DNA of 64,000 bases. It comes from Actinomycetota bacterium (lineage in GTDB: Bacteria; Actinomycetota; Thermoleophilia; Gaiellales; F1-60-MAGs149). Below the pieces are notes generated by a model. The model searched no databases. It was given only the letters and a program-made list of their open reading frames with translations, and was not told the origin of the DNA. Where the stretch lies: contig VFJZ01000005.1 of the NCBI GenBank assembly GCA_009885805.1, positions 74,999 to 138,998 of the forward strand. Reading direction: 5' to 3'. Positions 10,851 to 55,594 of this stretch are shown here, in pieces (the first letter of the stretch is position 1; every line of letters starts with the position of its first letter). The position numbers and the translations under genes were made by a program.

Positions 10851-10872
10851 CGGGCCGCCCGCTGGTGTAATC

Positions 10873-10886
10873 TGAACACGTGTTCA
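10873..10886. promoter_or_regulatory. Perfect 14-bp palindrome TGAACACGTGTTCA in a divergent promoter region; candidate TetR operator
   Basis: Read directly. It lies 23 bp from the GNAT start (10850) and 29 bp from the acyl-CoA dehydrogenase start (10915). The downstream operon encodes a TetR regulator. Confidence 0.5.
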
Positions 10887-10914
10887 AAATACAAGACAAC
10901 TGTTCGGCGACCTG

Positions 10915-35602: not shown

Positions 35603-36858
35603 TGCTCCGCCGGGTCGCGGTCGACCTCTCGCCGCTCCGCGACGCGCCAGCGTTCCGCCGCCTCCTCGCCGGCCAGGCGTTCGAGACGATCGCCGGGTTC
35701 ATCGTCTACGTCGCGATCCCGATCCAGGTCTACGACGAGACCCGCTCGACGCTCGCCGTCGGCCTGCTCGGCATCGTCGAGCTCGGCCCGCTCCTGGCGG
35801 CGTCGATCATCGGCGGCGGGATCGCCGACGCCGTCGACCGCGTCCGCGTGATCGTCCGGGTCGAACTCGGCGTCATCGCCGTCGCCGTCGCCCTCGCCGT
35901 CAACGCCTTCACCGGCACGCAGGTGTGGCTCCTCTACGTCCTCGCCGCCGCCTCGACGGGGATCGGGGCGCTCGGCTGGCCGGCCGCCCGGGCGCTGCTC
36001 CCCCGCTATGTGCCGCCGGAAGCGCTCGCGCCGGCCAACGCCCTGAACGGCACCGTCCTCAACTTCGGCGCCGTCGCCGGCCCCGGCCTCGGCGGCGTGC
36101 TCGTCGCGTTCCTCGGCGCCGGGGGTGCCTATCTGATCGCCGCCGCCCTCGCCCTCGCGGCGGTCGCGGCCTTCACGGGCCTGCCGTCCACGCCGCCGCT
36201 CGCAGGCGAGGGTGCGGCCGAGCGGGTGTCGGTCGGATCGATCGTCGCCGGGTTCCGCTACGTCCGCACGCAACCGGTGATCCTCGGCGTCTTCCTCGCC
36301 GACTCGACGGCGATGGTCTTCGGCATGCCACGCGCGCTCTTCCCGGCCTACGCCGACGACCTCGGCGGCGCCGCAACCGCGGTCGGCCTCCTCTACGCGA
36401 TGCCCTACGCAGGCGCCCTGCTTGCGAGCCTCATGAGCGGCTGGACGAACCACGTGGTCCGTCAGGGCCGCTGGGTGAACGGGATGATCGTGCTCTGGGG
36501 TTTCGCAATCGCCGGGTTCGGGCTCCTCGGCAACGTCTGGCTCGCGCTCGCCTGTCTCGCGATCGCCGGTGGCGCCGACACCATCTCGGCGATCTTCCGG
36601 TCCGTCATCGTCCAGCGCGAGACCCCCGACGCGATGCGCGGCCGGGTATCGGGGATGGAGCTGGCGCAGGTCGCCGCGGCGCCGATGATCGGTGACTTCG
36701 AAGCGGGTCTCGTCGCCTCGCTGACGTCCGTGAAGGTGTCGATCGTGTCGGGCGGCGTCGCCTGCGTCGGCGTCATCGCCGCCCTCGCCGTCGTCGTCCC
36801 GGCCCTCGATCGCTATCGCCGGCCCACGGTGGGCCGTTTGCCGACCGATGCTGTTTAA
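35602..36858 (+). CDS. MFS transporter (EntS/MFS_3-like)
   Basis: The ATG at 35602 overlaps the stop by 1 nt (TGATG). Sequence: 'FRRLLAGQAFETIAGFIVYVAIPIQVY...', 12-TM-like. Confidence 0.85.
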   Translation: MLRRVAVDLSPLRDAPAFRRLLAGQAFETIAGFIVYVAIPIQVYDETRSTLAVGLLGIVELGPLLAASIIGGGIADAVDRVRVIVRVELGVIAVAVALAVNAFTGTQVWLLYVLAAASTGIGALGWPAARALLPRYVPPEALAPANALNGTVLNFGAVAGPGLGGVLVAFLGAGGAYLIAAALALAAVAAFTGLPSTPPLAGEGAAERVSVGSIVAGFRYVRTQPVILGVFLADSTAMVFGMPRALFPAYADDLGGAATAVGLLYAMPYAGALLASLMSGWTNHVVRQGRWVNGMIVLWGFAIAGFGLLGNVWLALACLAIAGGADTISAIFRSVIVQRETPDAMRGRVSGMELAQVAAAPMIGDFEAGLVASLTSVKVSIVSGGVACVGVIAALAVVVPALDRYRRPTVGRLPTDAV

Positions 36859-36875
36859 CCCGGAGGGAGGACCAC

Positions 36876-38346
36876 ATGGCACGACGGATCCTGATCGTGC
36901 TCGCAGCGGCGCTGGCGCTGGCGGCCGCGGCCGGCACATCGACCGCGAGCGCCGAACGCGGACACCCCGACCGCGATCGCGGTGAGCGCACGCGACCGAC
37001 GCGCGTCCTGATCGTCGTGTTCGACCAGATGCGGCCGGAGTACGCCGACCGCTTCAACATGGTCAACTTCAAGGCGCTCCGCGACGGCGGCACGAACTTC
37101 AAGAAGGCGTTCCTCGGCCACATGGGCTCGGAGACCGTCATCTCCCACAACGTGATGGTCTCGGGCCAGTCGCCCCGCAACGTGGGCTAAGTCGACGAGG
37201 TCTACCGCGCCGAGCAGAACCTGCTCGGCGCGGCGCCGGCAAGATGCGGGTGACCGGCGGCCTGACGCTGGCGCAATTCGAGATCATCGGCAACGCCGAG
37301 GGCTACCCGAAACTCTCGGACTACCTCCACACCAGGAGCCCGGGCAGCAAGTTCATCGCTGTCGGCGAGAAGTCGCATGCCGTGGAGTCCGTGATCGCCG
37401 GCACCGGCGATAGCGGCGTCCGCATGTCGAGCCGCCGCGCCGCCGCGGGGACGGCAATCGCTTCGTGCCCGGCAACGACCCCGCGCATCTCGCCGGCGAC
37501 GTCTGGGTGGCGGACGCGGCGATGGCGATGATGGAGAAAGAGCCCTGGAGCGGCATGCTCGTCACGCTCGGCGGCATCGACAAGGGTGGCCACATGTGGG
37601 GCGGCGACCAGGACACGGCGACGCCGATCCGGCCGTCGACCCGACCGACGTGCCGTACCTGGCCAAGGTCGCCGACGACCAGCTGGGGCGGATGGTCGCC
37701 AAGCTGCAGGCGCTCGGCCAGCTCGATGACACGCTGATCGTGCTCACCGCCGACCACGGCGTCACCCACGGCGCCGAGTTCTACGGCAACACCGGACCGG
37801 TCGACCAGGGCAACTTCAACTGGTACTACGGCGACAGCGTCAACGACGGGCCGTTCCTGCAGCCGTCGCCGCCCGTCGCGGCCCTGCAGACCGCCCTCGG
37901 CGGCAACATCCCCGTCGCGAAGAAGCAAGAGGCCGCCAAGGCGCTGCGCAGCGCACCCGGCGTGATCGCCACCTACTGGCGGGACGGCGACCGGTACGTG
38001 CTCGACTCGAAGCGGACCGACCGGAAGATGACCCGAGCCGAGCGGCGCTGGTTCAAGAAGAACGCCCGCGCGATCGTGAACTCGATGGCCGCAGACAACG
38101 GCCCGGACGCGGTCGGGCCGTTCGGCGACAACGTCACCTGGAGCGTCTACGGCGACCACGGCGGCCATTCCGAGGAGGCGCAGCGCGTCCCGCTGGTCTT
38201 CTGGAGCGCCGGCATGGCGGACGAGTCCTCATCCACACCGTTTCCGCACCGTCGACATCCTGCCGAGGATCCTGCGCACGATGGGGATCTCCAGGACGCA
38301 TGTGATGGACGGGCGCGCCCGCAAGCTCGACATCGACGACGACTGA
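36876..38346 (+). pseudogene. Alkaline-phosphatase-superfamily (nucleotide pyrophosphatase/phosphodiesterase-like) secreted enzyme, heavily decayed
   Basis: A signal peptide and 'VLIVVFDQMRPEYADRF' are followed by an in-frame TAA at 37188..37190. Family text then continues in alternating frames: 'GYPKLSDYLHTRSPGSKFIAVGEKSHA', 'EKEPWSGMLVTLGGIDKGGHMWGG', 'DDTLIVLTADHGVTHG...GDHGGHSEEAQRVPLVFWSAGM' and 'VDILPRILRTMGISRTHVMDGRARKL...*'. That is at least 4 frameshifts plus 1 nonsense codon. Confidence 0.8.
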
Positions 38347-38373
38347 TCCGACCCGAAGCGACGCCGGGGGCGG

Positions 38374-39021
38374 CTATGGCCGCTCCCGGCGGAGCACCCG
38401 TGGACGGCGCGCCTCGAGCAGGTGCCGCCAGTCGAGGCGAGCGATCACGACAATCGGGACGATCGCGATGACCAGGCCGATCGCGAGCGGCAGAGGGGTG
38501 GCTCGCTCCCGCACGACCCGTTCGATCGAGCTCGCCGCGAAGGCGGCCGTCCCGACCGCCCAGCCGTAGACGAGCAGACGGCCGCTCGCGTAACAGCAGG
38601 CGATCGGCATCAGCCGGAGCCGCAGCGCACCGGCGGTGACGAAGATCGCGAGCGCCGGGTTGACCGGCGAAGCTGAGAGCAGCGCGAGGAACCTCGTCGC
38701 GTGCGAACGCGCACCGACGTACTCGGTGAGGAACTGCACGTTCGCGGCCAGCGCGCCGCGGACGAATCGCAGCGCACCGTGCCGCACGGCGATTGCCAGG
38801 AGCAGCCGACCGATGGTGGCGCCGGCCGCGCCCACCACGACGGCCTCGACATCACCGACGCCGTCCCTGAGCGCGACGACGGCGACGACCGCCGCCGTCG
38901 CGATCGCGGACGGGACGAGGTTGAGGAGAACGCAGATCCCGAGCAGCACCGCGAGCGTGAGCACCGCTGGCACGGTACCCGCGGGGAAGAACGGACGACG
39001 CTCCGACGTTATCCTTCGCAC
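38374..39021 (-). CDS. Integral membrane protein (DedA/VTT-like); start uncertain
   Basis: Hydrophobic text of 215-234 aa. The GTG at 39021 avoids an overlap with the lon start. Family assignment is tentative. Confidence 0.6.
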   Translation of the reverse strand: MRRITSERRPFFPAGTVPAVLTLAVLLGICVLLNLVPSAIATAAVVAVVALRDGVGDVEAVVVGAAGATIGRLLLAIAVRHGALRFVRGALAANVQFLTEYVGARSHATRFLALLSASPVNPALAIFVTAGALRLRLMPIACCYASGRLLVYGWAVGTAAFAASSIERVVRERATPLPLAIGLVIAIVPIVVIARLDWRHLLEARRPRVLRRERP

Positions 39022-47071: not shown

Positions 47072-49615
47072 CTACTCGTACTGGAGGGCCTGGAGCACGT
47101 CCAGCCGCGCCGCGCGGCGCGCGGGGAGGATCGCCGCCAGCACGCCGCAGACGACGGCGGCGAGCAGGTAGATGACGATCTGCGCGACGGGTAGGACGAA
47201 CCCGAGCCCGTCGACCGCGCGCGTCGCGAGGAAGCCGAAGACCATCCCGACGGCGACGCCGATGACCGCGCCGATGACCGCTGTGATGACGCTCTCGTAG
47301 CGCACGATCCAGCGCAGCTGCCGTCGCGTCGCGCCAACTGCGCGGAGCAGACCGATCTCACGCGTCCGCTCGTAGATCGACAGGACAAGGGTGTTCACGA
47401 GGCCGAGCAGTGAGATCACCACGCTGAAAGCGAGTAGCGCGTAGAGCAGTGCCAGGAACTGGTCGAGCTGGCGCTCGAAGCGCTGGAGGGCTGCGCGGTT
47501 CGACTCCGCCCGGACCTGCGGGAACGCAGTCTCGAGCGCGTCCACCACCGCCTGATCCGTCGCCTTGCGATCGACGCCCTCGCCAAACCGGACGAACGCG
47601 ATCCCGATCTCCGGCTTCTCGCCGAGTGAGTCGTACGCGTCCCGCGAGACGATGAACGTCTTGAAGATGGTCGGGGCGGAGTAGACACCACGAACGGTGA
47701 ACGTCGCCGAACGTCCCGATTCGGTGGCGACGGCAAACGTCGAGCCGACCGTCAGCGATCGCCCCTTCGCCCACTCCCTCTCGACGAGCGCGCCGTCGGC
47801 GCCCAGTTGCGTCACGAGGCTGTCGTCGCCGTTGACCCAGTCCATGCGATACGACTTCGTCAGCTCCGGCCCGGTCGCGGCGAGGGTGTCGTCGCGGCCG
47901 TCGATTCGCACCGCGAGCGTCTCGACCGCCACGACGGCGGACACACCCTCGACGCCCGCGACCGTCCCGATGACATCGGGCGGCATCACGTCGAACGACT
48001 TCGACTGGACGAGCATGTCCGACAGCAACGACGTCGAGAGCGTGCTGCGGAGCTGCTCCTTGAAGCCGGTCGTGAAGATCGCCGCCCACGTGATGAGCGC
48101 AACGGAGATCATCAGCGCCGCTGCCGTCACCGCCGTCCGGCCGGGGTTGCGGACGGTGTTCTCCGTCGCAATTCGCCCGGGCAGACCCGCCGCGCGAAGC
48201 GACCGACCGATGAGCCGCGCGAGTGGTGGGACGAGCCAGCGAGAACCCATTGCGACGCCGACCATCGTCAGCAGGACGCCAGCTCCCATCGCCGCGAGCG
48301 CCTGCCGGGGAGTACCGTCCGTGAAGAAGCCGATCGACGCCACGCCAAGGCCGAGCAGCACCATGACGGGTGCCAGCCAGGGCACGAACCGACCGCCGCG
48401 GGCCGGTGGCGGCGCGGTGCCCTCGCGGACGGCGGCGATCGGCGGGACGCGAGTCGCACGCAGGCCGGGTGCGAGGGCGGCGGCCAGCGTCACACCGACG
48501 CCGACAAGGAGGCAGATCGCGACGGTCCGCGGCGCGATCGCGAGATCGGCGCCCGGCAGACCGAACCCGAGGGCATCGAAGGCGACCAGGAGTAGGCTCG
48601 CAAAGCCGAGGCCGGCGACGATGCCGACCACCGTCGCGACGAGCGATACGACGATCGCCTCCCCGAGAACGCTCGCGAGGATCTGTCGGCGCGTCGCGCC
48701 GAGCGTCCGCAGCATCGCAAGCTCGCGGACGCGGTGGCCAATCGTCATCGAGAAGGCGTTGAAGATGATGAAGGCCGAGACGAAGATCGCGACGCCCGCG
48801 AAGGCGAGGAGGGCGGGACGGAGGAAGCCGTTGATCGAGTCGGAGATGCGCCTGGCCTCGGCGACGGCACGCTCACGGCCGGTCTCGACCGTGAGGTCGG
48901 CGGGCAGGGCCGCGGTGAGCCGTCGCCGCAACTCCTCGACCGAGACACCCTCGTCCGCGGCGACGTCGATCTCGTGGACCAGCCCCCGGCTGCGGAACCA
49001 CCGCTGCACGTCGTTGATGTCGGCCAGCACGACGGTCGCCCCGCCGAAGTCAACAGCTGACGTGAAGATGCCGACGATCGTCACCGGCTGTGCCCGCTGG
49101 TCGGTCGCCATCAAGGCGGTGTCGCCGACGCGGAGGTCACCGCGATCGGCGACCGACTTGAGGATCGCGACCTCACCCGGCGCCTCGACCTGCCTCCCCT
49201 CGATGTAGGTGCCGGTGTCGAACGGCGCGCCGGTCGAGTTGAAGACGAGCGGCGGCGCTCCGCCCGTCGGACCGAGGAACTTCGACTCGCCATCTCGCTC
49301 GATGACGAGGCCGCCGAAGCCCTGGATGAGTGGCTGCGCGACGGCGACACCGTCCACGGCAATGACGTCGATCAGCACCGACTGGTCGAACGGGACGATG
49401 TCAGCGTTGTCGTCCGTCGCGAACGCGGCTGCTTTCGTCACGACGATATCGGTCGTGGCGCGCGTCTCGACGAAGATGTTCTCGAACGCCGTCCCGATCT
49501 GGTCGGTCAGCGCGAAGGTGCCGGAGATCATCGCGACGCCGAGGACGATCGCGAGGGTTGTCAGGGTGCTGCGCAGCTTCCGCGCGAGCATTCCCCGCAG
49601 CGTCACGCGCCGCAC
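47072..49615 (-). CDS. ABC transporter permease, double FtsX domain (MacB-like), tandem copy A
   Basis: 847 aa from the GTG at 49615 (homologous to the start of copy B). By eye it is roughly three quarters identical to copy B along its whole length. Confidence 0.85.
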   Translation of the reverse strand: MRRVTLRGMLARKLRSTLTTLAIVLGVAMISGTFALTDQIGTAFENIFVETRATTDIVVTKAAAFATDDNADIVPFDQSVLIDVIAVDGVAVAQPLIQGFGGLVIERDGESKFLGPTGGAPPLVFNSTGAPFDTGTYIEGRQVEAPGEVAILKSVADRGDLRVGDTALMATDQRAQPVTIVGIFTSAVDFGGATVVLADINDVQRWFRSRGLVHEIDVAADEGVSVEELRRRLTAALPADLTVETGRERAVAEARRISDSINGFLRPALLAFAGVAIFVSAFIIFNAFSMTIGHRVRELAMLRTLGATRRQILASVLGEAIVVSLVATVVGIVAGLGFASLLLVAFDALGFGLPGADLAIAPRTVAICLLVGVGVTLAAALAPGLRATRVPPIAAVREGTAPPPARGGRFVPWLAPVMVLLGLGVASIGFFTDGTPRQALAAMGAGVLLTMVGVAMGSRWLVPPLARLIGRSLRAAGLPGRIATENTVRNPGRTAVTAAALMISVALITWAAIFTTGFKEQLRSTLSTSLLSDMLVQSKSFDVMPPDVIGTVAGVEGVSAVVAVETLAVRIDGRDDTLAATGPELTKSYRMDWVNGDDSLVTQLGADGALVEREWAKGRSLTVGSTFAVATESGRSATFTVRGVYSAPTIFKTFIVSRDAYDSLGEKPEIGIAFVRFGEGVDRKATDQAVVDALETAFPQVRAESNRAALQRFERQLDQFLALLYALLAFSVVISLLGLVNTLVLSIYERTREIGLLRAVGATRRQLRWIVRYESVITAVIGAVIGVAVGMVFGFLATRAVDGLGFVLPVAQIVIYLLAAVVCGVLAAILPARRAARLDVLQALQYE

Positions 49616-49617
49616 TG

Positions 49618-49653
49618 CTACTCGAGCCCCATGACGACGTCCCGGATCTGATC
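49618..49653 (-). other. Vestige of the ABC ATPase 3' end carried along by the tandem duplication
   Basis: The minus strand reads 'gat cag atc cgg gac gtc gtc atg ggg ctc gag tag' = DQIRDVVMGLE*. The real ATPase ends 'DQILDVVKGLE*' at 52247. Both are followed 2 nt later by the permease GTG. Confidence 0.7.
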
Positions 49654-49706
49654 GGCGATGGCGGCCGAAGGAGGCATGGAATGAGCTTACAGCGGCCCCG
49701 CCGCCG

Positions 49707-52244
49707 TCACTCGTACTGCAGGGCGTGGAGGACGTCGAGCCTGGCCGCCCGCCGAGCCGGGAGAATCGCAGCGAGCACTCCACAGACGACGGCCGCGACG
49801 AGGAACAGCACGACCTGCACCACCGGCACGACGAAGCCGAGTCCGTCGATCGCCCGGGTCGCGAGGAAGCCGAAGACCATCCCGACCGCGACGCCGATGA
49901 CGGCGCCGATGATCGAGGTGATGACGCTCTCGTAGCGGACGATCCGGCGCAGCTGGCGACGGGTCGTGCCGACGGCGCGAAGCAGGCCGATCTCGCGGGT
50001 TCGCTCGTAGATCGCCAGCACGAGCGTGTTGACGAGCCCGAACAGGGAGATCACGACGCTGAAGGCGAGCAGGGCATACAGCAGCGCGAGGAACTGGTTC
50101 AGCTGACCCTCGAAGCGATCGAGGGCAGCGCGGTTCGACTCGGCACGAACCTGCGGATAGGCGGCGTCAACGGCAGCGGTGACAGCCTTTTCCGTGCTCG
50201 CCGCATCGATGCCTCCGGCGAAGCGGACGAACGCGATGCCGATCTCGGGTTTCTCGGCGATCGCCGCGTACGCGTCCCGGGAGACGATGAACGACTGGAA
50301 GAAGGTTGCGTCGGAGAAGACGCCCTGCACGGTGAACGTCGCGGAGCGTCCGGCCTGCGTGTCGACGGCGAAGGTCGACCCGATCGCCAGGGAGCGGGTC
50401 TGGGCCCAGTCCTTCTCAACGAGGGCGCCGTCCACGCCGAGCCGCGCCACGAGGCTGTCGTCGCCGGTGACCCAGTCGATCTTGTACGCCTCCGTCAGCT
50501 CGGGCCCGGCGGCCGCGAGCGTGTCCTCGGTGCCGTCCACACGGACTGGCGTCGCCTCGATCGCCACAACGGTCGAGACCCCCTCGACAGCGGCCGCGAC
50601 GTCGACGACGCCGGGCGGCATCGCGCCGAACGACTTGGACTGGATCAGCATCTCGGAGGTGAACGAGGTGCCGAGCGCGCTGCGGATCTGCTGCTTGAAG
50701 CCAGTCGTGAAGATCGCTGCCCAGGTGATCAGGGCGACCGTGATCATGAGCGCAGCGGCCGTGACGGCGGTGCGACCGGGGTTCCGCACGGAGTTCTCGG
50801 TCGCGATCTGTCCCGGCAGGCCTCGCAGTGGGCGGCCGACGAGCCGCGCGATCGGTGGGACGAGCCATCGCGATCCCATCGCGACCCCGACCATCGTCAC
50901 CAGCACGCCGGCACCCATCGCGAACAGCACCTGCTGCGCGGTGCCGTCGCCGAAGAAGCCGATCGAGGTCACGCCGACGCCGATCAGCACGAGCAGCGGA
51001 GCCAGCCACGGGACCAGTCGTCCCGAACGTGCGACGGGAAGCGCGGCGCCCTCACGCACGGCCGCGATCGGCGGTACGCGCGTCGCGCGCAGCCCGGGCG
51101 CGAGCGCGGCCGCCAGCGTGACGCCGACACCGACCGCGAGGCAGATCGCGACCGTTCGGGGGGCCACCGTGAGATTCGAGCTGGGCAGGCCGAACCCAAC
51201 CGCATCGAACAGCGCCAGGAGCACCGAGGCGAAGCCGAGGCCGGCGACGATGCCGACGGCGGTCGCGAGGAGGGAGACCACGACCGCCTCCGCCATGACG
51301 CTGCCGAGCACCTGGCGGCGCGTCGCGCCCAGCGTCCGCAACATCGCGAATTCACGAACGCGCTGCCCGATCGTCATCGAGAAGGCGTTGAAGATGATGA
51401 AGGCCGACACGAAGACCGCGACGCCGGCGAAGGCCAGCAGCGCCGGGCGCAGGAAGCTGTTGATCGAGCCGGAGATGCTCGCTGCCTCGGCGAGACCGCG
51501 TTCACGCCCGGTCTCGACGGTGAGGTCGGCCGGCAGGGCGGCGGCGATGCGGGACTTCAACACCTCACCCGCGACGCCGTCCTTCGCGGCCACGACGATC
51601 TCGTGGGCCTTGCCCTCGCTGCGGAACCACCGCTGCACGTCGGTCGTCTCGCCGAGCACTACCGTCGCTCCGCCGAAGTCTGCCTTCGACGTGAAGACAC
51701 CAACGATCGTGACGGGTTCGGCACCCGTGTCCGTCGCCATCTGCGCCGCATCGCCGACGCCGACGTCGCCGCGGTCGGCGACCGCTTTCAGAATCGCGAC
51801 CTCACCGGGCGCAGCGACCGGGCGGCCCTCGATGTAGGTGCCCGTATCGAATGGCGGTCCGGCGGAGTTGAAGACGAGCGGCGGGGCGCCGCCGGTCGCG
51901 CCCAGAAACTCGGGCTTGCCGTCCTTGACGACGATCAGTCCGCCCAGGCCCTGGACGACGGGCTGCGCGACCTCGACACCCTCGACGGCCCGCACCTGCT
52001 CGATCAGCGACTCGTCGAAGGGCACGATGTCGCCCGTCTCGTCACTCGAGAACGTCGCCGCCTTCGTCACGACGACGTCGGTCGTCGCCCTCGTCTCGAT
52101 GAAGATGTCCTCGAAGGCCGACCCGATCTGGTCGGTCAGCGCGAACGTGCCGGAGATCATCGCGACGCCGAGGACGATCGCGAGGGCGGTCAGGGTGCTT
52201 CGCAGCTTGCGGGCAAGCATCCCGCGCAGGGTCACGTGCCGCAC
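49707..52244 (-). CDS. ABC transporter permease, double FtsX domain (MacB-like), tandem copy B
   Basis: 845 aa: 'MLARKLRSTLTALAIVLGVAMISGTF...' and 'LRAVGTTRRQLRRIVRYESV...'. It starts 2 nt after the ATPase stop. Confidence 0.9.
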   Translation of the reverse strand: MRHVTLRGMLARKLRSTLTALAIVLGVAMISGTFALTDQIGSAFEDIFIETRATTDVVVTKAATFSSDETGDIVPFDESLIEQVRAVEGVEVAQPVVQGLGGLIVVKDGKPEFLGATGGAPPLVFNSAGPPFDTGTYIEGRPVAAPGEVAILKAVADRGDVGVGDAAQMATDTGAEPVTIVGVFTSKADFGGATVVLGETTDVQRWFRSEGKAHEIVVAAKDGVAGEVLKSRIAAALPADLTVETGRERGLAEAASISGSINSFLRPALLAFAGVAVFVSAFIIFNAFSMTIGQRVREFAMLRTLGATRRQVLGSVMAEAVVVSLLATAVGIVAGLGFASVLLALFDAVGFGLPSSNLTVAPRTVAICLAVGVGVTLAAALAPGLRATRVPPIAAVREGAALPVARSGRLVPWLAPLLVLIGVGVTSIGFFGDGTAQQVLFAMGAGVLVTMVGVAMGSRWLVPPIARLVGRPLRGLPGQIATENSVRNPGRTAVTAAALMITVALITWAAIFTTGFKQQIRSALGTSFTSEMLIQSKSFGAMPPGVVDVAAAVEGVSTVVAIEATPVRVDGTEDTLAAAGPELTEAYKIDWVTGDDSLVARLGVDGALVEKDWAQTRSLAIGSTFAVDTQAGRSATFTVQGVFSDATFFQSFIVSRDAYAAIAEKPEIGIAFVRFAGGIDAASTEKAVTAAVDAAYPQVRAESNRAALDRFEGQLNQFLALLYALLAFSVVISLFGLVNTLVLAIYERTREIGLLRAVGTTRRQLRRIVRYESVITSIIGAVIGVAVGMVFGFLATRAIDGLGFVVPVVQVVLFLVAAVVCGVLAAILPARRAARLDVLHALQYE

Positions 52245-52246
52245 GA

Positions 52247-52998
<752 letters not shown>

Positions 52999-53069
52999 GC
53001 CCGCAGGGTACCGCCGGTCGACGGCACGGAACGTCGTCCGAGCGGCTGATCTGCCTCGTTCTTGCGGCT

Positions 53070-53164
53070 GATCAGCGGTACACGTACACCGTCTCGCCGA
53101 CGGGCGACTGGCGGTAGAGCCAGTCCGCCGCCCACATCGGGACGCGCGCGCAGCCGTGGCTGGC
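53070..53164 (-). repeat. Direct repeat copy 1: displaced remnant of the L,D-transpeptidase 3' end
   Basis: My ungapped alignment to 54372..54466 (offset 1302 bp) gives 86/95 identical bases. It still encodes '...HGCARVPMWAADWLYRQSPVGETVYVYR*'. Confidence 0.85.
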
Positions 53165-53208
53165 GATGCTGTTGTTGATGTGATACTCTTTACATGAACT
53201 ACTGAAAT

Positions 53209-53218
53209 GGGGGGGGGG
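53209..53218 (+). repeat. G10 homopolymer immediately upstream of the islet's first gene
   Basis: Counted directly: g at 53209-53218, followed by 'agcacaATG' (ATG at 53225). The tract ends in an SD-like GGAG. An upstream ATG at 53207 would read through it as MGGGST. Confidence 0.95.
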
Positions 53219-53224
53219 AGCACA

Positions 53225-53758
53225 ATGAAGATCCTTTCCAAGCGCAATGCCGTGGTCGTCGCGGTTGTCGTTGTCGGTTCCATCGCCGCGTTCGGGTCGG
53301 CACTCGCCTCGTCCGAGGACGAGGACGTCAAGGTCGATGCGTCGTGGGCGGTCGAGGCGGTGGCCACGCAGCGCGCAGCGGAAGAAAACCTGCCGCCGTC
53401 GCCGCCGGCCGCTGCGACGGCGGTGGGCGCGGAACTCGCGGCTCTCGAGGCGGCGAACGGGCACGCCGCGCCACCGCTTCTCCCGCCCACCGTTGACGAG
53501 AACGGCCTCGAGGTGAAAATCGGGAGCGCGCAGGAACCGCCGCGATTCGTTCCTGGCGGTGCGGTGCGTATCTACCCGGATACGCCCGAAGGTCTCAAGT
53601 ACGGCCTGACCGGAGCGCTTGAGGACCAGACGACGCTGCTCTGCAGGTATCCGAACGGCAACCTCGGGGGCATGGAGATCCTGCGGCGGGCAGGCGCGAC
53701 GGGTGACCCGTTCCCACCGCAGAACCCCAATGCCCGGAGTTGGGAGCGGCCATGCTGA
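53225..53758 (+). CDS. Secreted/membrane-anchored hypothetical protein (islet cargo)
   Basis: 'MKILSKRNAVVVAVVVVGSIAAFGSALASSEDED...' looks like a signal peptide or anchor. A Pro/Ala-rich linker follows, then a ~90-aa domain with no family I recognise. Confidence 0.65.
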   Translation: MKILSKRNAVVVAVVVVGSIAAFGSALASSEDEDVKVDASWAVEAVATQRAAEENLPPSPPAAATAVGAELAALEAANGHAAPPLLPPTVDENGLEVKIGSAQEPPRFVPGGAVRIYPDTPEGLKYGLTGALEDQTTLLCRYPNGNLGGMEILRRAGATGDPFPPQNPNARSWERPC

Positions 53759-54307
53759 GCTGCCGGCCTCGCCTCACGCTCTGCATGTTCGCACTGCTCG
53801 GACTATCACTATCGGCGCCTACGGCGTCGGCCATACACCCCGGGCCCGGTCACCTTGCAACCTTGGGGCTGGCTGTTCCGCGGGTCTACTTTGTCGACAC
53901 GACAGGCCCGAACTGGCCGGTCACGGCGGCGGCGCAGAAATGGAACGAATCGACTGCCGTCGGCGCCTATCGCGTGTCTGCCTGCCCGTCGACGTCCTAC
54001 TACTGCCTGCCCACCGTAGCCGTAAACCTGGGGACCTCTCCATGCGATGGCTCGATCGACGGCGTGTTCTTGTTCAACGTGTCGTCGGCGGGCCACTGGA
54101 TGCGTGACAGCCGGTTCAGACATCGTGTTCTGTAACGACACGCCGTCGGATCGCCGCCTGTCGACCGCGTGCCACGAGGAAGGCCACCCTCTCGGGCTAG
54201 GCCACAGAGGAAACGTCCTTGGCACCTGCATGAGGACTGGAACTATCTACCCGCAGTACCCGGACGCTCACGACTACGCACAGCTGGTGTCCGTCTACAA
54301 CCACTGA
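53752..54307 (+). pseudogene. Secreted metzincin-type zinc metalloprotease, split by one frameshift
   Basis: The ATG at 53752 (ATGCTGA overlap with the upstream stop) gives the signal peptide 'MLSCRPRLTLCMFALLGLSLSAPTASA', and this frame ends at 54135. A second frame (54047..54307) carries 'IVFCNDTPSDRRLSTACHEEGHPLGLGHRGNVLGTCM', that is HExxHxxGxxH plus a Met-turn-like 'CM'. The frame switch lies somewhere around 54070-54110. Confidence 0.7.
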
Positions 54308-54371
54308 TCGTCCCCGTCGGTGGCGCGAACTCCCCCGGTGGGGGTTCGCGCCATCGACTGGGCGCTGCCTG

Positions 54372-54466
54372 GATCAGCGGTAGACGTAGACGGTCTCGCC
54401 GACCGGGGACTGGCGGTACAGCCAGTCCGCCGCCCACATCGGAATCCGCGCGCAGCCGTGGCTGGC
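54372..54466 (-). repeat. Direct repeat copy 2: functional 3' end of the L,D-transpeptidase gene
   Basis: See 53070..53164. It encodes '...HGCARIPMWAADWLYRQSPVGETVYVYR*'. Confidence 0.85.
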
Positions 54467-55534
54467 CGGGTAGGCGGGCACCGGCGCGAAGCCGTGGATG
54501 GCGAAGCTGTTCCCCTTGAACGTCAGCGTCCGGTAGAGGATCGCCGGCCCGAGCCACGTGCGGGTGCTCGGCGCCTTCCAGCGGATGCGGTGGCGGCCCT
54601 CGGGCGTGTTCCCCGTCGCGCCGGTCGAGGTCGGGATGACGTGCCGGACACGACCGTTCCTGACGACGAGCAGGACCTGCCGGGTCTTGTCGATCTCGAT
54701 GTGGAGACCGTGGCCCCGGAAGCGCGGCCGGATCCGTCGCGCGGTCTGCAGCTTGCGCCAGTCGTCCGCGTCGATCACGTAGGTGCGGGGCAGGCGGTAG
54801 GCCTTCTGGAAGGCGACGACCGCATCGGTCGCGTCGCGGGAAAGGATCGAGGCGATGCCCGGCGTGTGGAACCCGAGTTCCTCGAGTCGGCGCAGCAGGG
54901 CCCGCACGTCGGCGCCGCGCGAGCCGGCCGCGAGCCGGCGGCCAGCGGCGCGGAAGGAGCGGTGGACGGTGCGTGCGGCGAGCCCGTCGGACGCCGGCAC
55001 CTCGACCTCGGCTCGGAAGCGCTCGACGCCGGGGGCGGAGAGCCGTACCCGCGCCCGCCCGTCCCGGATCTGCACTCGCCGCGCCGCGAGACGGTTCGAG
55101 CCGCGCAACGTCCGCGCGATCACCTCGCCGGTCCAGGTCGAGGGCTGGATCTGGATGTGCAGCGTCGCGCCGAGGTACGCGTTCGCCTTCGTGATGCGCG
55201 TGATCACCCGCGGCACGACCACCAGTGCGGCCGGCGTGCTGACGGCGCCGTCCGCCAGTCGCGCCGTGACGGCGCCGCCGCGGCTCGCCTGGAACGTCGC
55301 GGCAAACGCCCCGGCCACATCGGTCATGGTCGTTCCGACGTCCGTCCCGTCAATCGCGATCGTCAGCGTGAGGCCGGCGACGGCTGGCTGGACCGCACCC
55401 GAGAGGTCGACGGGGCCGTGCCACTCGACCTCGGGCGCGGGCAGCGAGATCGAGATGGTCTCCCCGGCCGCGGAGGCGGCGGCCGGGAGTCCGAGCGTGA
55501 GGAGCAGGGCGATCAGGGTCCGTTGCACGGTCAC
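54374..55534 (-). CDS. L,D-transpeptidase (YkuD domain) with a peptidoglycan-binding domain
   Basis: GTG at 55534 or 55528. The signal peptide is 'QRTLIALLLTLGLPAAASAAG'. The PG-binding-like segment is 'GSRGADVRALLRRLEELGF...AVVAFQKAY', and the catalytic 'SHGCARIP' is present. The upstream part of track ORF 54374..56320 is shadow over the next gene. Confidence 0.85.
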   Translation of the reverse strand: MTVQRTLIALLLTLGLPAAASAAGETISISLPAPEVEWHGPVDLSGAVQPAVAGLTLTIAIDGTDVGTTMTDVAGAFAATFQASRGGAVTARLADGAVSTPAALVVVPRVITRITKANAYLGATLHIQIQPSTWTGEVIARTLRGSNRLAARRVQIRDGRARVRLSAPGVERFRAEVEVPASDGLAARTVHRSFRAAGRRLAAGSRGADVRALLRRLEELGFHTPGIASILSRDATDAVVAFQKAYRLPRTYVIDADDWRKLQTARRIRPRFRGHGLHIEIDKTRQVLLVVRNGRVRHVIPTSTGATGNTPEGRHRIRWKAPSTRTWLGPAILYRTLTFKGNSFAIHGFAPVPAYPASHGCARIPMWAADWLYRQSPVGETVYVYR

Positions 55535-55594
55535 CAGATCGGCGAGAGGGGCCCTGGGGTTGAGCACGAGTGATCGGCGTGCTACACCGGCGGT

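Follow-up and report, generated by a model that had tools for sequence, protein, structure and literature searches.

A ten-guanine tract in the leader of a horizontally acquired islet encoding a predicted secreted metzincin and its partner protein in an uncultured actinobacterium

The stretch of DNA analysed here (hereafter the window) comprises 64,000 nucleotides (nt) from an uncultured member of the Actinomycetota (GenBank assembly GCA_009885805.1, contig VFJZ01000005.1, positions 74,999 to 138,998 of the forward strand), and contains on its plus strand a run of ten guanines (G10; 53209-53218) lying 6 nt ahead of the start codon of a gene for a secreted protein. The tract is followed by AGCACA and then by the ATG at 53225-53227, and its last G residues together with the succeeding AG form the sequence GGAG (53217-53220). 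An earlier reading of the locus made from the letters alone (hereafter the sequence-only reading), which proposed a possible phase-variation switch at this tract, had placed these elements correctly. A second ATG on the same strand (53207-53209) abuts the tract and takes its first G as the third base of the codon; it lies 18 nt before the main ATG and, at a tract length of ten, is therefore in frame with the gene in the window (MGGGST-MKIL...). Direct reading of the sequence ahead of this upstream ATG revealed no Shine-Dalgarno (SD)-like element. The plus-strand segment preceding the tract (53166-53208) is AT-rich, is present in a single copy, and is identical at 41 of 43 positions in the one other known carrier of the locus, a metagenome contig designated L001. 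It supplies the lowest-GC 40-mers of the window, which start at 53169 and 53170 and have a GC content of 32.5% as against 71.5% overall, in agreement with the earlier description of it as the most AT-rich stretch. Together with the tract it makes up a leader of 60 nt (53166-53224) between an insertion junction and the ATG, and this leader is the entire upstream region of a two-gene operon. Neither further copies of the leader elsewhere in the window nor terminal inverted repeats were seen, and searches recovered no known RNA element in the leader at permissive E-values and no Rfam family in the whole window.

No other homopolymer of the window exceeds 6 nt, the next longest being two G6 runs (at 51158 and 52978). 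Dinucleotide shuffles yield about three G8 matches per window, so that composition alone does not make G10 rare. A census of G/C runs across 514 kb of related actinobacterial loci from metagenome-assembled genomes (MAGs) counted 74 runs of 6 nt, eight of 7 nt, one of 8 nt and a single run of 10 nt, the last being the homologous tract of L001. Against the clade's own run-length distribution G10 is an outlier, and the DNA of this clade strongly avoids long runs.

The first gene of the operon (53225-53758, plus strand) encodes a protein of 177 amino acids (aa) with a clear Sec-type signal peptide (MKILSKRNAVVVAVVVVGSIAAFGSALA, with the mature part beginning SS), a linker rich in Ala and Pro, and a conserved C-terminal domain with RPC as its last residues, which bears out the claim that the tract fronts a secreted-protein gene; the signal peptides of both operon products were judged by eye. 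Among 5.8 billion proteins only one other sequence resembles this partner protein, namely the L001 copy, and it has no matches in Pfam or NCBIfam. Its AlphaFold2 (AF2) model is unusable, with a predicted local distance difference test score (pLDDT) of 42. Exact-protein look-ups returned no record for the window's own products. The second gene (53752-54307, plus strand) overlaps the stop codon of the first in the sequence ATGCTGA; its product is a small protein that has a signal peptide of its own and a HEEGHPLGLGH motif. In the window this gene carries a +1 frameshift, and the NCBI annotation calls only a truncation of 127 aa (P0005); the shift, at about 54118-54121, consists of one extra base in non-repetitive sequence (ttcagaCatc as against ttcaggatc in L001). 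An intact orthologue of 184 aa with the motif HESGHGLGLTH is present in L001. The family to which these proteins belong comprises about 273 cluster representatives, in whose alignment C159 is invariant and M160 nearly so. The AF2 model of the intact orthologue has a pLDDT of 91.8, and Foldseek searches with it recovered the catalytic domains of matrix metalloproteinases (MMP-7), snapalysin and serralysin as matches, while no curated family reached its cut-off. The zinc-binding motif, the Met-turn and the modelled fold thus point to the second gene product being a hitherto uncharacterised small metzincin. In two members of the family, P0004 and P0007, the first His of the HExxH motif is replaced by Gln.

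Distant members of this metzincin family in L056, L057 and L060/61 are likewise preceded by an overlapping small gene, whose product aligns with the partner protein and shares with it the signal peptide, the Pro-rich linker and a conserved C-terminal domain, most copies of which finish in RPC. The gene pairs (L056, 209-1221; L057, 64-1025; L060, 655-1625; L001, 1541-2544) lack family annotation, and the metzincin is about 185 aa long. On the strength of these alignments the partner and the metzincin constitute a conserved, previously undescribed two-gene module. The distant copies have ordinary SD sequences (GGAGGAG-ATG in L056; GGAGGG) and are devoid of runs of at least 6 nt, which indicates that the tract is not part of the conserved regulation of the module and is peculiar to the lineage of the window and L001. 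A MacB-type permease gene is also found near the module in L057. A search of L056 with ARAGORN for a tRNA fragment serving as an attachment (att) site found no tRNA.

Both the leader and the operon belong to a horizontally acquired islet of 1.2 kb, which is inserted at the 3' end of an L,D-transpeptidase gene, within its final 96 nt. This gene (54374-55570, minus strand, the start being approximate) matches the Pfam families YkuD and PG_binding_1 and has orthologues in L001, L002 and L025. The islet is bracketed by two direct repeats derived from the 3' end of the transpeptidase gene. The left repeat, R1 (53070-53165, minus strand), duplicates the last 31 codons and the stop codon at a displaced position and is non-functional, and the right repeat, R2 (54372-54466, minus strand), is the functional 3' end. 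R1 ends exactly where the AT-rich leader starts, and in a six-way alignment the homology stops at 53165/53166. A repeat search aligned R1 and R2 over 95 nt at 91% identity, and in both carriers the repeats are 95-96 nt long and 91-93% identical, those of L001 lying at 1387-1482 and 2655-2750. Eight of the nine differences between R1 and R2 fall at third codon positions. Both repeats share a TGA stop codon and a GATC starting 2 nt past the stop, whereas the outgroups L002 and L025 have TAG. A reading of R1 and R2 as template and variable repeats, as in diversity-generating retroelements, was rejected, given that the differences are not adenine-specific and are concentrated at third positions, and that there is no reverse transcriptase.

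When one genome per species was scanned with the L,D-transpeptidase as query, its closest relatives were recovered at 66-67% aa identity in MAGs of uncultured Actinomycetes, followed by MAGs of Thermoleophilia and Gaiellaceae. The two closest loci, L002 and L025, retain the synteny of the 3-hydroxyisobutyrate-type dehydrogenase (HIBDH), the transpeptidase and the ATP-binding cassette (ABC) transporter genes, and lack both the islet and the repeat; in them the 330-370 nt between the stop codon of the transpeptidase and the ABC ATPase gene are occupied by unrelated sequence. These loci thus represent the empty site, implying that the leader and G10 belong to the insert. Consistent with a foreign origin, the GC content at third codon positions (GC3) is 0.77-0.80 in the islet genes as against 0.87-0.93 in the host genes, and a frame model trained on the host called the whole islet non-coding. 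No recombinase or integrase was found in the 1.2-kb insert, which holds only the two secreted-protein genes; the islet might have arrived by att-type integration followed by loss of the element, or by homology-facilitated illegitimate recombination. The tract lies 44 nt inside the islet junction rather than on the junction itself. Between the stop codon of the metzincin gene and R2 there is an inverted repeat (54312-54362, strand unassigned) with arms of 23 nt that are 87% complementary; a different, unalignable hairpin occupies this site in L001, and the structure is likely to be a terminator for the convergent genes. At the other end an imperfect direct repeat of 21 nt (TCGTCCGAGCGGCTGATCTGC / TCGTTCTTGCGGCTGATCAGC; 53034-53076), with a spacing of 22 nt, extends across the left boundary of R1 and may be a small duplication tied to the junction. 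The empty-site spacers contain multiple copies of a motif resembling GTGCCAGGCACCGATCCGCCAGAAGG (L002, 7170-7390; L025, 7190-7330), which may represent an operator array lost in the islet-bearing lineage.

The second carrier, L001, is a 5.4-kb metagenome contig from the Joint Genome Institute (JGI sample 3300082540) and the sole other sequence with this islet, so that comparison of tract length is confined to two sequences (n=2). Its gene order is the same as that of the window, with the ABC ATPase, the partner gene, the metzincin, the L,D-transpeptidase and the dehydrogenase. Scans of metagenome contigs by exact pattern and by protein alignment uncovered no further carriers of the leader, and neither viral contigs (protein and DNA) nor plasmids (DNA and protein) yielded matches to the islet. 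The tract of L001 (1526-1535) is again exactly G10. The variation in length across carriers that a switch was expected to show is thus absent from the two sequences available. Over their 60 nt the leaders of the two carriers are distinguished by two substitutions and by a single indel, which lies outside the tract (CAATG in the window versus CATG in L001). At G10 the upstream ATG of L001 is out of frame and opens an upstream open reading frame (uORF) of six codons (MGGGST and stop), whose UGA overlaps the main AUG. Hence, the N-terminal extension that the sequence-only reading had derived from the upstream ATG is a correct description of the window but is not a conserved feature: the frame relation has been shifted by mutation elsewhere, while the length of the supposedly hypermutable tract has been kept. 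L001 retains both the main ATG and the signal peptide, and the NCBI annotation starts the 177-aa protein at the ATG at 53225.

Along the locus, synonymous divergence (dS) between the two carriers is strikingly uneven. It is 0.08 over the 5' half of the ABC ATPase gene and 0.06 over the signal-peptide codons, 0.30 in both the transpeptidase and the dehydrogenase, and rises to 0.86 in the mature partner protein and 0.85-0.97 in the metzincin. The region 52485-54371 is accordingly a mosaic, with low values (0.06-0.08) from the 5' half of the ABC ATPase gene through R1 and the leader to the signal peptide, and a break at about 53330, just past the signal peptide. This looks like old divergent alleles of a cassette placed behind a recently exchanged block of leader and signal peptide. 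The ratio of non-synonymous to synonymous divergence (dN/dS) of the islet genes is 0.31-0.45, indicating purifying rather than diversifying selection. The leader is no better conserved than adjacent non-functional DNA: it shows 3 differences in 60 nt, R1 shows 5 in 95 nt, and the spacer upstream of the ABC gene 5 in 71 nt. The non-coding block around the tract has thus diverged by about 5% between the two carriers, and G10 has been kept; if slippage here is as frequent as in mycobacteria, a neutral divergence of about 5% would represent a long time for such a run.

Given that only 60 nt separate the junction from the ATG, the promoter of the operon must lie in the AT-rich part of the leader. 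Inspection by eye identified a candidate extended -10 element, TGaTACTCT (53181-53189), whose L001 version, TGaTACTTT, keeps the pattern TGnTAnnnT. The AT-rich half of the leader most likely carries the promoter, with transcription starting near 53196. G10 would then be situated within a 5' untranslated region (5'UTR) of about 29 nt, and its 3' end together with the AG at 53219-53220 would constitute the SD element (GGGGAG, plus strand), which ends 4 nt before the AUG. The run could in principle pair, with the aid of G-U wobbles, with the pyrimidine-rich 3' tail of the 16S rRNA in several registers. From this arrangement it follows that slippage would alter only the 5' side of the run, leaving the spacing between the SD and the AUG fixed, and that the spacing of the -35 and -10 elements would be unaffected by the length of the tract, as the best promoter candidate lies wholly upstream of it. 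The proposal that a change in length would move the ribosome-binding site (RBS) or the promoter spacing is therefore not borne out. From GGGGAG to the conserved ATG the gap is 4 nt in the window and 3 nt in L001.

The predicted accessibility of the start codon is likewise insensitive to tract length. Leaders with G5 to G14 were modelled, and the energy needed to open the segment from -12 to +13 around the AUG was computed; from G7 to G14 it was flat in both carriers (11.2-11.7 kcal/mol in the window and 12.7-13.4 kcal/mol in L001). The sole length-dependent digital effect left is the frame of the SD-less upstream AUG, which cycles with a period of three. Of the proposed toggling of an N-terminal extension, therefore, the cycling of the frame stands, while the extension itself is neither conserved in L001 nor preceded by an SD. 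Several other structures and products were considered for the tract and discarded. A stable leader structure, in which the tract is predicted to pair with AUCCUUUCC (codons 3-5) and to enclose the AUG, is not significant relative to shuffled sequences (z-scores 0.13 to -0.96). A G-quadruplex was rejected on direct reading, since a single G10 run cannot provide four G-tracts. A minus-strand open reading frame (ORF; 53072-53464), which reads C10 in frame into R1, was also rejected, as it has stops in L001, its GC3 of 0.71 is not host-like and it is antisense to a conserved gene.

Taken together, the best reading of the locus, to which we assign a probability of roughly one half, is that the segment, at the left junction of the islet, represents the promoter and G-rich SD leader of an acquired secreted metzincin module of two genes. 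The tract would be a length-tolerant, G-rich SD and 5'UTR element that has been kept at ten in both known carriers; it is intrinsically slippage-prone and potentially hypermutable, and a role as an ON/OFF switch is unproven. The anatomy of the leader, the islet, the conservation of the locus between the two carriers, the structure of the operon and the frame relations are all directly observed. Other considerations weigh against this reading. A scan of the leader for a sigma-70 consensus promoter found nothing, and matches to the extended -10 pattern show no enrichment across the window (4 observed versus 6.2 expected). Of the other three matches, at least two fall in segments that the frame model called non-coding. 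The leader had been described as promoter-like, and of this its AT-richness is upheld, but not any recognisable consensus. There is no 16S rRNA gene in the window, and the pairing of the SD with the host's own anti-SD is thus putative. More generally, the promoter, the transcription start, the use of the SD and the absence of a length effect are all predictions. As the leader is part of the recently shared block (dS 0.06-0.08), the two tracts are only weakly independent samples. Finally, an exact G10 over about 5% neutral divergence, in a phylum that repairs run indels poorly, suggests that the length itself is selected, which would also be expected of the ON-length of a switch.

One alternative, which we regard as unlikely, is that the locus is a true contingency locus, in which slipped-strand mispairing at G10 would move the upstream AUG around a cycle of three states and so bring about reversible but heritable changes in the output of the secreted metzincin module. 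These states would be an in-frame N-terminal extension; a uORF of 6-7 codons with its UGA overlapping the main AUG, allowing termination-reinitiation; and an out-of-frame overlapping ORF of 95-132 codons that hinders initiation. The long tract does abut an ATG, the three-state cycle of period three is present in both genomes, and both downstream products are secreted. The deeply divergent alleles (dS ~0.9) of the acquired islet are of a kind often seen for contingency genes, and a run-length difference of 1 nt has inactivated the neighbouring ABC ATPase gene in the window. Slippage at G10 is also plausible on general grounds, as many actinobacteria lack MutSL and the alternative NucS-type repair does not fix indels of 1-2 nt (PMC11551767), and there are precedents in the phylum (PMC11898584, PMC4746626, PMC9187656). 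However, both known carriers have G10, and they differ in the state of the upstream AUG at this length through an indel outside the tract, so that the frame of this AUG looks unconstrained. The upstream AUG has no SD of its own, neither the distance from SD to AUG nor the predicted accessibility depends on the length of the tract, and the other copies of the module are without any tract. Thus, of the suggested phase-variation switch, the real and exceptionally long tract and the plausibility of its slippage survive, while the identical length in the only other carrier and the flat accessibility speak against it.

Comparably doubtful is the possibility that the tract is a functionless relic, which came with or arose beside the insertion junction and persists either because little time has passed or because slippage is slower than assumed. 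This would account for a leader no better conserved than the non-functional DNA next to it, for the young age of the shared block, for the absence of the tract from other copies of the module, and for an operon that is already decaying in the window, where the metzincin gene is frameshifted. Against it, runs of at least 7 nt are almost absent from the DNA of the clade, implying that long runs are as a rule eliminated; no SD-like sequence other than the 3' end of the tract precedes the conserved start codon; and the tract is set 44 nt within the islet, away from the junction.

A still more specific proposal would combine several of the above observations into three-state translational phase variation by a length-selected G10 (extension, AUGA-coupled mini-uORF and long interfering overlap) in an uncultured soil actinobacterium related to Thermoleophilia and Gaiellaceae MAGs, with divergent alleles of the mature proteins (dS ~0.9) behind a near-identical leader and signal peptide (dS ~0.06). 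We consider it a long shot.

The genes flanking the islet bear on the reliability of run lengths in the window. On the other flank of the islet lies the gene for the ABC-transporter ATPase (52247-52998, minus strand), which is frameshifted in the window by a -1 change at 52616-52619, where the coding strand has C4 as opposed to C5 in L001. In L002, a related MAG, the ABC ATPase gene carries a +1 indel only a few bases away from the corresponding position. The split in the window could be either real slippage or a homopolymer sequencing error. Similar splits occur at related MAG loci, in the ABC ATPase of L002 and in the HIBDH of L025, and the frameshifts of the window reflect either real pseudogenes or residual indel errors of the MAG assembly. 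Farther away, a gene for a phosphodiesterase/alkaline-phosphatase-like protein (36700-38470) appears to undergo at least four frame changes within 1.6 kb, and is either a heavily decayed pseudogene or a region of locally poor consensus. The lengths of single-base runs in the window thus deserve caution, and it is the agreement with L001 that makes G10 credible. Accordingly, it is highly improbable that the length of the tract stems from an error in sequencing or assembly and that the true sequence differs: the window does have several apparent frameshifts (the C4 of the ABC ATPase, the +1 of the metzincin and the gene at 36.8-38.4 kb spread over at least four frames) and its closest relatives are MAGs with split genes of their own, but the presence of the same G10 in the same place in an independent assembly of different origin argues against an artefact and makes the long run certain, with an uncertainty of at most one nucleotide in either direction.

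Other features of the window include two tandem paralogous genes for MacB/FtsX-type permeases of about 850-900 aa (47072-49783 and 49707-52244, minus strand), to which the permease fragment of L001 is 79% and 87% identical in nucleotide sequence, respectively. The second most AT-rich spot of the window (10860-10900) contains a perfect palindrome of 14 nt, TGAACACGTGTTCA (10873-10886), beside TGTAATCT, and probably represents a promoter together with an operator.

For the present, the value of the locus lies chiefly in a small acquired islet with a previously undescribed pair of partner and metzincin genes, a 96-nt duplication of its target, and a 60-nt leader that must hold all of its expression signals. 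A long run beside a secreted-protein gene is not by itself evidence of phase variation. If switching at G10 were true, contingency by homopolymers would extend beyond host-associated actinobacteria (Mycobacterium, Cutibacterium and Bifidobacterium) to an uncultured environmental lineage, and its mechanism would be an unusual one, based on the phasing of a uORF rather than on promoter spacing or frameshifting of the main ORF.

In the classical contingency loci of Gram-negative bacteria such as Neisseria, Haemophilus and Campylobacter, the repeat tract is located either between the -35 and -10 elements or inside the ORF, and a change of one unit in either direction is directly digital in its effect. 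The locus described here is reminiscent of these in having a long mononucleotide run before a surface or secreted gene in a variable islet. It differs in the placement of the tract between the best promoter candidate and the fixed end of the SD, so that neither spacing changes. The remark of the sequence-only reading that descriptions of such tracts are uncommon for high-GC actinobacteria no longer holds, as examples are available from Mycobacterium, Cutibacterium and Bifidobacterium. In Mycobacterium tuberculosis there is a G7 run in glpK and a variable G run in the 5'UTR of espR; the latter varies recurrently among clinical isolates, and the addition of one G experimentally raises translation by way of the leader structure (PMC11898584). 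The espR tract is the closest in position to that of the islet, both being G runs upstream of the start codon in a transcribed leader of a high-GC actinobacterium, and in both cases any effect would be exerted on translation through the leader or RBS and not through a coding frameshift. Unlike in espR, no variation is observed here (n=2), folding predicts no effect of length, and the tract itself forms the SD.

Cutibacterium acnes has 54 reported variable tracts, of which 96% consist of G/C; among those in intergenic positions, two-thirds precede genes. The tracts vary along clade lines, a pattern that the authors interpreted as slow accumulation as opposed to active switching (PMC4746626). 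These runs resemble the one described here in being mostly upstream of the 5' ends of genes, some of which code for secreted proteins, and their clade-wise variation fits the stability of G10 in the islet. The C. acnes data, however, include polymorphism over 90 genomes and a tract overlapping a mapped -10 element, as against two genomes and no polymorphism in the present case. In Bifidobacterium breve the genes for sortase-dependent pili contain an intragenic G tract that acts as an ON/OFF slippage switch, and the heterogeneity of its length was measured by maximum-depth sequencing (PMC9187656). Here again there are G tracts of about ten bases in Actinomycetota beside genes for an exported product, but that of B. 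breve is inside the coding sequence and shifts the frame of the main ORF, whereas the tract of the islet lies outside the main ORF.

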